DNA of 7,472 nucleotides, taken from IMG/VR virus record IMGVR_UViG_2660238346_000032, positions 1 to 7,472 of that record. One strand, 5' to 3'. The notes under the pieces were generated by a model. The model worked only from the letters and a program-made list of their open reading frames with translations. It had not been told where the DNA came from and did no database searches. Within the stretch, counting starts at the first letter, position 1; every line of letters begins with the position of its first letter. Below are positions 2,133 through 4,966 of this stretch, one piece after another. Source of the DNA: a virus. Its lineage: Duplodnaviria > Heunggongvirae > Uroviricota > Caudoviricetes. Both the position numbers and the translations under genes were made by a program.

Positions 2133-2498
2133 TCATTGATTCACCTCCTGCGGCGGCTCCGGTAGCGGCATCCAGTGGGTTACTTTCGATGCCGGTTCTT
2201 CCCCATTGTCAGTAACTGCCCACCATTTGTTTCTCGAACAATCGTAATACCCTTCGAAGGTATCGCACTCAGTCCAGCCGTAAGACTTACCCCAACACCA
2301 AACATACTGTTTATCGTTCGGCATTCGCTCACTACAGCTTATCCAGCCATCCGTAGTTACCGGAGAATTGCCAGCCTTGCGCATGGCAATCTCCATGATT
2401 TCAACCATATCCCCTGGTGGAATTTTACAATGCTGACCAGTATGCCTCTGCTGTCTGGCATATTCGAGGATGTGCTCCAGCTTGGTACGATTAATCAT
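2133..2498 (-). CDS. DUF551-domain phage protein
   Basis: 121-aa ORF. The C-terminal half (WISCSERMP ... VTHWMPLPEPP) matches the characteristic DUF551 W...W / THWMPLPEPP pattern seen in many enterobacterial prophage proteins. ATG at 2498 overlaps the upstream stop as ATGA and is preceded by GGGAGA. Confidence 0.7.
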   Translation of the reverse strand: MINRTKLEHILEYARQQRHTGQHCKIPPGDMVEIMEIAMRKAGNSPVTTDGWISCSERMPNDKQYVWCWGKSYGWTECDTFEGYYDCSRNKWWAVTDNGEEPASKVTHWMPLPEPPQEVNQ

Positions 2499-3004
2499 GA
2501 TTTATCTCCCTTAAGCATGGCAGCGCGGCAGGCATCCTCTACGCCCTTAACTGCATCTGCGCAGTAGTTATAGCGATTGCATTCCACTAACTTCTGCTTG
2601 AGATTTTCAATTGATTGCGCGATATCAGCCTGTATTACCGGAGCTGGCGGAACGGCTGTCTGCACTCGAACGTCATCAGGTACTACCGGCTCTACTGCCA
2701 ACTGACTGGCATATTTGTTAATGGTAACGATAAGCTCTTGCTCGGCCTCATCCAGACAATCACCGATACCTCGCCTGTCACCATCAAAATCATCGAAATC
2801 GGCGCGAATCCTGGCAACCTCCCGGATTGCGGACAACACCTCACCAGGAATTACCGTAGAGTTGCCCGATAGTACATTCTGCTCCAGTGATGCCAGTGCA
2901 ATCCGTGCCAGCTCACGAATCTCACCGCCGTCTATATCGTCAATGTCATCACGGCCAGAAATGTTAGCCAGCCATTGCAGTCGCTCTTTGGTAATAGTGA
3001 TCAT
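2495..3004 (-). CDS. Hypothetical acidic phage protein (169 aa)
   Basis: ATG at 3004 overlaps the upstream gene stop as ATGA and is preceded by AAGGAA. Strongly acidic composition (DDIDDIDGGE, ADFDDFDGD). N-terminus MITITKERL resembles the N-terminus of the 101-aa protein at 4179..4484. Confidence 0.6.
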   Translation of the reverse strand: MITITKERLQWLANISGRDDIDDIDGGEIRELARIALASLEQNVLSGNSTVIPGEVLSAIREVARIRADFDDFDGDRRGIGDCLDEAEQELIVTINKYASQLAVEPVVPDDVRVQTAVPPAPVIQADIAQSIENLKQKLVECNRYNYCADAVKGVEDACRAAMLKGDKS

Positions 3005-3516
3005 GCCGCGTTTCCTTCTTCCTTATTAACAATTACACCGTCATATATTTCATTAAGGTGCCCTCTCAACTCCATGCGCCTTAATGCAGATAACATGTAA
3101 TCGCATTCAACCTGCTTATTCCCAGTAAATGGCTTATCGTCAGGATTACCCCAACAGCAATTACCCCTGGGCCATCCATGTACTTTCCGTACTCTTCCGT
3201 TAACAACGTGAAGTAATCCCCAGCCGGGAGGTAAATCCTCAACTGAAATAATTTCCGGCTCACTAATAAAGAATCGCCAGTCGCCCATGCCAAGTGAGGG
3301 ATTTTTACGGAAACGCTTTTTTCTATCTGCCAACAAGTCAGCACGAGAACACTTCGCTTCTATCAGGCATGATGCTGAATTTCTGAATCCCATAGCATCT
3401 GGCTGTTCTCCGGTACTGGTTACAGCTATAAAGCGGTCATGAAAACAAACCTTGAACCCGTTGCGCTTAAGGAACTTGTACGCAATCTGACAGAGTTCGC
3501 GGTGTGTTAACGCCAT
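3001..3516 (-). CDS. Putative PD-(D/E)xK-fold nuclease-like protein (171 aa)
   Basis: The track ORF runs to 3597 but would overlap the upstream gene by about 80 nt. ATG at 3516..3514 (MALTHRELCQ...) is preceded by AAGGAGAG and lies 1 nt after the upstream stop. Motif E7 ... G-E-Q-P-D40 ... L-I-E53-A-K55 has the spacing (12 residues between D and ExK) and context of Hjc/VRR-NUC/RecB-like PD-(D/E)xK nucleases. The C-terminal roughly 90 aa (GWGLLHVVNGR ... CCWGNPDD) is unrecognised. Confidence 0.55.
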   Translation of the reverse strand: MALTHRELCQIAYKFLKRNGFKVCFHDRFIAVTSTGEQPDAMGFRNSASCLIEAKCSRADLLADRKKRFRKNPSLGMGDWRFFISEPEIISVEDLPPGWGLLHVVNGRVRKVHGWPRGNCCWGNPDDKPFTGNKQVECDYMLSALRRMELRGHLNEIYDGVIVNKEEGNAA

Positions 3517-3517
3517 A

Positions 3518-4192
3518 TCACTCTCCTTTGATGCGAATGCCAGCGGCGCGTGGCACATTAACTTCCACGATGCGCACAGTTGGTTTGTACATCTCAATCG
3601 CTGTCAGCCAGTCAGCGCCAGTCATGCGCTTTTCTGCATCGCCATTAGTCCACTTAACCGGTACACCAATAGCCTTCATCGCGATTTCTATTTCCCCGGC
3701 AATGGCGCTTTTTCCGCAACCAGTAAAACCAGAAACAACGACAAGAACTTCACCTTTGGCTGGTTTTATTTCCCGTGCTTCCAGTTCAGCAATACGCTTA
3801 CTTCCATCCGAGATAACACCTTCGTAATACTCACGCTGCTCGTTGAGTTTTGATTTTGCCGACTCCAGTTGTTTTGTTAGTTCCGCAATACGGCAAACAT
3901 CGTTGATACGCGTTTCCTCTAATGCGTTGATCTCATCCAGTAGTGCCAAAGCAACCTTTGGATTAAAGGCAGCAATAAATTCAGCGTTTGCGTAAGCCTG
4001 AGCATCTGTTTCAACCAGGCAGTTAACATGACATTCTGCAATCACGCCACCGGGTTCTCCTTTCCATTTTTGGCAAACAAAAACTCCTGTTAAATTGCCG
4101 TGCTGGTTAACAGATGTATGCCCTACGATGTAGCTTCCTTTAGTTGCTTTCTCTGCCTTTTCACGCAGTGCCTGATAGTTAATCTCGCTCAC
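3518..4192 (-). CDS. Ea22-like (Ead/Ea22 family) protein with coiled-coil and P-loop-like C-terminal module
   Basis: The most plausible start is GTG at 4192..4190, preceded by a perfect AAGGAGG with a 6-nt spacer. The track's 4234 start is a TTG without an SD. N-terminus SEINYQALREKAEKATKG ... AEFIAAFNPKVALALLDE resembles the Ead/Ea22-like N-terminal domain as recalled from memory. The central segment is heptad-like (LEETRINDVCRIAELTKQLESAKSKLNEQREYYE). The C-terminus contains VLVVVSGFTGCGKSAIAGEIEIAMKAIG, i.e. a strand plus GxxxxGKS Walker-A-like loop plus helix. Confidence 0.65.
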   Translation of the reverse strand: MSEINYQALREKAEKATKGSYIVGHTSVNQHGNLTGVFVCQKWKGEPGGVIAECHVNCLVETDAQAYANAEFIAAFNPKVALALLDEINALEETRINDVCRIAELTKQLESAKSKLNEQREYYEGVISDGSKRIAELEAREIKPAKGEVLVVVSGFTGCGKSAIAGEIEIAMKAIGVPVKWTNGDAEKRMTGADWLTAIEMYKPTVRIVEVNVPRAAGIRIKGE

Positions 4193-4484
4193 TGGCTGCC
4201 TCCTTTGCTGGGCTTTCGAATATATCAAACTCAAACAACTTAACTACGTCATCAAACAGGACATAATCGCCATCAGAATCTTCAGTCATGTCAGCGCCAC
4301 AATCCTGACCGAACGAGTCACAACCACCCATATCAAGCTCGTATCGCTTGAGTTTTGCGATATTTGATAAATTCAGCGCCAGTACAGCAAGGTCATAAAC
4401 CTCGTCAGCGGTATACCCTGCACCATGCCCATACATTTCAATGCGGGATATGATTTCTTCTACACGTTGTTTTGTGATTGTCAT
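4179..4484 (-). CDS. Hypothetical highly acidic small protein (101 aa)
   Basis: ATG at 4484 overlaps the upstream stop as ATGA and is preceded by GGGAGGTGA. I count roughly 23 Asp/Glu against 9 Lys/Arg, with an acidic C-terminal tail (DMTEDSDGDYVLFDDVVKLFEFDIFE). N-terminal MTITKQRV resembles the N-terminus of the 2495..3004 protein. Confidence 0.6.
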   Translation of the reverse strand: MTITKQRVEEIISRIEMYGHGAGYTADEVYDLAVLALNLSNIAKLKRYELDMGGCDSFGQDCGADMTEDSDGDYVLFDDVVKLFEFDIFESPAKEAASERD

Positions 4485-4966
4485 TTTTGCTCACCTCCCT
4501 GTTCTTCCAGAAAAATACGCATAGCCTCAAGCATCTCTTCGGTGTCATACGGTGACAACTTGTCACGCAGGATGTGTTCAATGCTGTTAACGAACTTGCG
4601 GATTGCTTTGCGTTCAATTTCAGCCAGGAAAGCGTCTGTAGCCGGGGTTTGCGGCATACCTCCGTCTGTTGCGCAGATATACGCATCAGATAGTTCATCC
4701 TGCTCGCCATCAAACACGTAGCAACTCTGTACGATAAATTTATTCAGCCCCGCACTCTCCGCTGCCAGCGCCGCGCACTTGGCCTCAAGGTTATCAATCG
4801 TGATTCCAGCAGAACGACACTCCCGCAACGCCGTTTCTAGTTTTGATTCAAGTTCACCGAACTTACGGACAAGATATTCAGCGTTTGTTTCGTTAACCTT
4901 TAAATCTCGGGGGATGCATTTACCTTTCAGAAATCCATCCATCTCAATTAGTGACATTTGTTTCAT
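4481..4966 (-). CDS. Hypothetical acidic phage protein (161 aa)
   Basis: ATG at 4966 is preceded by GGAG. It is the first gene after a 171-bp gap and is followed by ATGA-coupled downstream genes. Acidic, with a predicted helical/coiled-coil central segment. No family recognised. Confidence 0.6.

Follow-up and report, generated by a model that had tools for sequence, protein, structure and literature searches.

The 7,472-nt window (the whole stretch of viral DNA analyzed) carries three genuine genes for small acidic proteins, all on the minus strand: o161 (positions 4481–4966), o101 (4179–4484), and o169 (2495–3004). The 161-aa o161 protein contains 30 D/E and 20 K/R residues (net charge −10, pI 4.70), the 101-aa o101 protein 23 and 9 (net −14, pI 4.16), and the 169-aa o169 protein 31 and 19 (net −12, pI 4.43). 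The original prediction had estimated net charges of −10 to −14, and the computed values agree. A Shine-Dalgarno (SD)-like sequence precedes each of the three genes. They lie within a compact six-gene chain with 4-nt ATGA overlaps, located between abc2/DUF2737 and DUF4222/xis/int, so that the earlier description of an "early-left accessory block" is fair. Near-identical proteins (identical or 99% identical) were found on many contigs.

Downstream of o101, and in a common cassette with it, lies o238 (3518–4192, minus strand), a member of the Ead/Ea22 family (PF13935, 100.3 bits). Its likely start is a GTG at 4192 (224 aa) with a strong SD; the resulting 14-nt overlap is also found in the RefSeq annotation (locus L002). 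Between this Ea22 gene and o169, o198 (3001–3516, minus strand; likely start ATG at 3516 with an SD upstream, 171 aa) encodes a basic protein with a D...E.K motif that matches PHROG 9263 and 631. It is possibly nuclease-like and is unrelated to the module network described below. The DUF551 gene o121 (2133–2498, minus strand; PF04448, 68.8 bits) overlaps the o169 stop by an ATGA. Of 78 loci with an o101 homolog, 60 have an o161-type gene upstream and 51 an Ead/Ea22-like gene downstream, counts that overstate the independent support because these loci are close relatives. A pair of o161-like and o101-like genes is also present in Salmonella phage Vi II-E1, for which no integrase is annotated. 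A Lar-like restriction-alleviation gene is present elsewhere in the genome of this phage.

The three ORFs belong, as ordinary members, to a heavily recombined network of small modules in enterobacterial phages, which also includes Ead/Ea22, Eae, and DUF551 proteins. The original prediction had overlooked that they form one network with the Ead/Ea22 and DUF551 genes interspersed among them. Their modules, of ~35–70 aa each, are shuffled in relatives with Ead/Ea22, DUF551, DUF550, and nucleotidase domains. Segments recur independently, fused to DUF551, Ead/Ea22, DUF550, or a dNMP phosphatase, even in permuted order. The modules are joined by conserved junction peptides, and among 86 related loci the ends of DNA similarity cluster at these junctions. 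The particular combination of modules of the window was found in one place in none of 5,426 complete Escherichia coli genomes.

The segments of o161 and o169 were read from sequence patterns; o101 alone was modeled with AF2. In o161, a protein of Eae/hkaH type, an N-module (residues 1–36, positions 4859–4966) is followed by a putative coiled coil with a hypervariable cassette (residues 37–105, 4652–4858) and by a C-module that starts at a conserved junction peptide (residues 106–161, 4484–4651). Relatives either retain the N and C parts and exchange the middle, or exchange the C-module, and DNA similarity breaks at ~4850, 4752, and 4648. A protein identical to o161 (P0352) occurs on 14 contigs. 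PHROG 368 is matched by both o161 and o238, and two relatives of o161 (P0374 and P0424) score 27.9–29.3 bits against PF13935 (cutoff 27) through the end of the coiled coil and the cassette.

In o101, a TITKQR helical hairpin, the N-module (residues 1–44, 4353–4484), precedes a Cys/acidic β-hairpin mini-module (residues 45–87, 4224–4352; KRYELD..CDSFGQDCGADM.ED.DGDYVLFDDV) and a disordered acidic tail (residues 88–101, 4182–4223). Each module occurs singly in other proteins: in a profile search of 1.84 billion representatives, positions 1–40 and 41–88 were matched separately. The AF2 model (pLDDT 72.8, pTM 0.43; helices 5–18, 26–42, and 77–84, strands 47–51 and 65–68) predicts two loosely joined mini-domains with a disordered tail, and a search with this model did not find a match to a known fold. 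The protein is under strong purifying selection, with dN/dS ratios of 0.12 for the N-module and 0.11 for the Cys module (range 0.11–0.13). The Cys module is mostly embedded in multidomain proteins of 200–365 aa, including a fusion to a dATP/dGTP pyrophosphohydrolase, and in some relatives the N-module and the Cys module together precede a DUF550 pyrophosphohydrolase. Rare proteins fuse o101 to Ea22 (P0241 and P0258).

The conservation of the Cys module raises the question of a metal. Among 51 diverse sequences, C55 and C62 vary little or not at all, D56, S57, Q60, D61, D65, and E68 are each conserved in at least 90%, and a third Cys (CDSCGQDC) is present in most of the remote members. With its Cys loop predicted between two β-strands, the module might be a metal-binding mini-domain, in which the Cys pair holds Zn, perhaps between two chains, or the Asp cluster holds Ca/Mg, and o101 a metal-dependent adaptor. 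However, the copy in the window (CDSFGQDC) has only two Cys, which would not suffice for a mononuclear Zn site in a single chain, and o101 matches no zinc-ribbon or EF-hand family. We regard this explanation as unlikely. If it held, the negative charge would serve cation binding, folding, or dimerization, a role that can coexist with the adaptor function favored below.

The description of all three proteins as strongly acidic stands for o101, which ranks first in acidity among 139 clusters of co-oriented ORFs drawn from 80 related loci, but not for o169 and o161, which lie near the 10th percentile of the same clusters. Acidity is a property of particular modules and is family-wide. The Cys module contributes −8 of the −14 net charge of o101 and has a mean net charge of −8.9 over 110 instances; the pI is below 5 in 99% of the o101 family and, for o169, in 93% of the matches listed. 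The original prediction had also proposed that such proteins are often DNA mimics or anti-restriction or antidefense factors. In this explanation o101, and perhaps o161 and o169, would occupy the DNA-binding sites of defense enzymes early in infection. The conserved acidity and the purifying selection of o101, the vicinity of the anti-RecBCD gene abc2, and the occurrence of o101 in phage Vi II-E1 with its Lar-like gene, where a function that aids lytic growth is plausible, all point in this direction. The pair in this phage fits a lytic-growth role and is equally compatible with an antidefense function. Like T7 Ocr and plasmid ArdA, the proteins are small, early expressed, and acidic, o101 having a pI of 4.16 against 4.05 for Ocr. 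The charge densities are lower: against a benchmark for the mimic class of about −20 or more per 100 aa and a pI of about 4, o101 (−13.9 per 100 aa) is borderline and o169 (−7.1) and o161 (−6.2) fall short, corresponding to 58% and about 25–30%, respectively, of the density of Ocr (−23.9). Searches of Pfam and NCBIfam at E ≤ 0.1 returned only noise for the three proteins and no anti-restriction or DNA-mimic family, including Ocr (PF08684) and ArdA (PF07275), and no PDB chain was matched at E ≤ 1 by o101 or o169, o161 giving only noise. The three sequences were also not found in those supplementary files of a published counter-defense screen of 200 accessory genes that were searched. As DNA mimics are known with many unrelated folds, the absence of a fold match for o101 is only weak evidence against mimicry. 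Known mimics form one rigid domain with an extended surface, whereas o101 is predicted to be modular and partly disordered, and its acidic module, mostly found in multidomain proteins including an enzyme fusion, is unlike their build. Nothing that we found supports DNA mimicry or an anti-restriction or antidefense role, which we consider improbable here. As acidity is family-wide in the region from the recombination genes to xis/int, "small, early, and acidic" should not be read as "DNA mimic" there.

The recurrence of the o161/o101 pair allows a more speculative explanation. The o101 proteins might form a new family of small acidic effectors, in which a leader hairpin is combined with a Cys/Asp-rich β-hairpin dimerizing through a shared metal. 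With their conserved upstream partner, a coiled-coil protein of the o161 type, they would constitute a two-gene cassette disabling a host DNA-binding or defense protein during lytic growth. We give this proposal little credence, no more than DNA mimicry, but it would explain the retention of the pair in a phage without an annotated integrase. If it were true, the module network would amount to a combinatorial library whose pieces target the host, much as in polymorphic toxins, except that it would act within the infected cell.

The original prediction had also noted an N-terminal TITKxR motif in o101 and o169 and had suggested a shared module followed by divergent acidic tails. The starts read as described, MTITKQR in o101 and MITITKER in o169 (the longer N-terminus quoted earlier being MITITKERLQWL), and the proposal held: the two proteins are homologous over ~37–41 aa, predicted as a helix-loop-helix, and continue with unrelated acidic parts. 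BLASTP aligned them with E = 0.05, and profile–profile comparison of the N-termini with hhalign gave a probability of 93% (E = 3e-7, 36 columns). The hhalign score of 32.0 compares with a maximum of 12.8 among 40 full column shuffles, which points to a likeness far beyond chance. The consensus of the module is M(x)(T)ITK(E/Q)R(L/V/I), followed by a variable loop and a second helix, ..E(L)A(R)(I)AL.., ending at about residue 40. By consensus and hhalign, both proteins carry it. It is complete in o169, whose residues 1–43 match PHROG 60, 3323, and 660, and its second helix has diverged in o101 (LAVLALNLSN vs. LARIALASLE). About two-thirds of the score (~20 of 32 units) comes from the first eight residues, and a cluster of DNA breakpoints lies directly after codon 10 of o169. 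The start might thus be conserved for nucleic-acid reasons, serving at the 5′ ends of the operon genes as a shared region of translation initiation or as a short linker for recombination. However, at the DNA level the two copies have drifted apart (15 of 27 nt identical at the start and 20 of 36) and the codons differ, so that the peptide is what is kept. The second helix alone aligns in register (P = 0.007–0.03), a bridging variant (MTTITKERLLTIKQWRETYGPGSNVV..EELARIALASLE) shares 44% identity with residues 2–37 of o101 over 36 residues, and the o101 copy, whose low dN/dS is given above, is predicted as a helical hairpin with a pLDDT of ~77. Conservation at the nucleic-acid level is therefore highly improbable. 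The TITKxR start instead marks an N-terminal module of ~40 aa, predicted as a helical hairpin, serving as a leader for many different C-terminal parts. The N-terminus of the DUF551 protein o121 aligned with the module by hhalign over 33 columns (P = 0.006; negative controls 0.06–0.7), and may be a third, diverged copy.

In o169, the N-module (TITKERL...ELARIALASLE; residues 1–41, 2882–3004) is followed by the GNSTVIPGE junction and the conserved segment VARIRADFDDFDGDRRGI (residues 42–103, 2696–2881), by a Pro-rich linker (residues 104–125, 2630–2695), and by a last segment ending at a CRAAML junction (residues 126–169, 2498–2629). DNA similarity breaks at ~2976, 2856, and 2508. The N-module and the core (residues 46–168) are found apart from each other in relatives, the core being fused to DUF551, Ead/Ea22, DUF550, or the N-terminus of o161; sub-segments are permuted in P0217 and P0232. 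Most relatives are fusions to DUF551, and many are single proteins of ~190–295 aa. It is nevertheless very improbable that the ORFs, chiefly o169, are nonfunctional remnants left by recombination, with a longer DUF551 gene broken into pieces here by the ATGA between o169 and o121, given that a standalone form of 166–169 aa recurs (P0121, 99% identical, with 29 member sequences; P0125 on 102 contigs), that a separate SD and start are present for o169 as well as for o121, that the fused relatives differ by whole modules, so that a simple frameshift does not account for the split, and that o101, for its part, is under purifying selection.

We therefore favor, as the probable explanation, that the three ORFs are functional members of a hypermosaic accessory network (labeled variously as Ead/Ea22, Eae/EaA/hka, YfdS, or DUF551), probably acting as noncatalytic adaptors that bind host proteins. 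As parts of the leftward operon the genes would be transcribed early, with translation coupled along the chain. Each protein is a string of modules, namely helical hairpins, one Cys-containing acidic β-hairpin, and a putative coiled coil, exchanged at the junction peptides by phage–phage recombination. Like Ea22 and YfdQRST of the CPS-53 prophage, they would probably act nonenzymatically, by oligomerizing and binding host proteins, and their variable, mostly acidic surfaces would tune host physiology early in infection. Acidity would then belong to the binding modules rather than serve to imitate DNA. The analysis establishes that the genes are real, that they are built of modules with breakpoints at the junctions, that acidity resides in modules, and that purifying selection acts. 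Oligomerization, host-protein binding, and this biological role are inferred by analogy, and the models, Ea22 and YfdR/YfdS, are distant relatives whose own mechanisms are only partly understood.

In lambdoid phages, Shiga-toxin phages among them, the region from the recombination genes to xis/int ranks with the least understood stretches of otherwise well-studied genomes. By influencing the lysis–lysogeny decision, it also affects toxin release. The significance of our analysis is modest: three anonymous acidic ORFs are now placed in the recombining Ea22/DUF551 module network, and two units without a Pfam model are delimited, the TITKxR leader hairpin and the Cys/acidic hairpin RYDLD..CDSCGQDCGADM..DGEYV, providing experimenters with defined pieces rather than whole mosaic proteins.

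The closest comparison is with Ea22 of λ and Stx phages, which is encoded in the same region and transcribed early leftward (Dydecka 2020, PMC7093339; Goddard 2024, PMC10834534). Ea22 proteins are mosaic tetramers with a conserved N-terminal part, a coiled coil, and swappable C-terminal domains, all acidic and including the portable DUF551 (PMC10834534). Sequence pattern and relatives suggest a similar layout for o161, with a short N-domain, then a putative coiled coil and an acidic, variable C-terminal part, in a region equivalent to exo–xis, and o238, immediately downstream of o101, is a true Ea22-family gene. However, o238 is the only one of these proteins to match PF13935, which none of the three ORFs did, and o101 and o169 bear the TITKxR hairpin in place of the Ead/Ea22 N-domain. 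The K/RGE C-terminus common in Ea22 (PMC7093339) is present in o238 (...IRIKGE) but not in o161 (...GGEQK), o101 (...ASERD), or o169 (...KGDKS), and by sequence none of the three matches the solved C-terminal domain of λ Ea22 or other PDB chains. Ea22, thought to work through host partnerships (PMC7093339), is prolysogenic, whereas one of the phages that carry o101 has no annotated integrase.

DUF551/YfdS and DUF550/YfdR of CPS-53 and lambdoid phages are related to the locus through the frequent fusion of o169 modules to DUF551 and through o121, next to o169. YfdR binds DnaA, and YfdQ and YfdR together with either YfdS (DUF551) or YfdT inhibit replication initiation (Noguchi and Katayama 2016, PMC4776307), a precedent for host-protein binding in this class of genes. 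However, Pfam detects neither domain in the three ORFs, DUF551 being in o121, and the DnaA interaction was mapped to YfdR and not to any of their modules (PMC4776307). The ea genes of P22 and hka genes of HK620 share their position, orientation, and neighbors (abc2, DUF2737, and erf/ssb) with the locus. Relatives of o169 are labeled "EaA protein" and those of o161 "Eae protein" or hkaH/hkaI, which are depositors' annotation labels without experimental function. Finally, polyvalent proteins of phages and conjugative elements, said to have been described by Iyer et al. in 2017, reportedly combine a constant leader with swappable effector domains. Although the proteins studied here are small, built of tiny units (~35–70 aa), and mostly nonenzymatic, they resemble such polymorphic and polyvalent conflict proteins in their conserved N-terminal leader, their exchanged cassettes, and their concentration in an accessory region.

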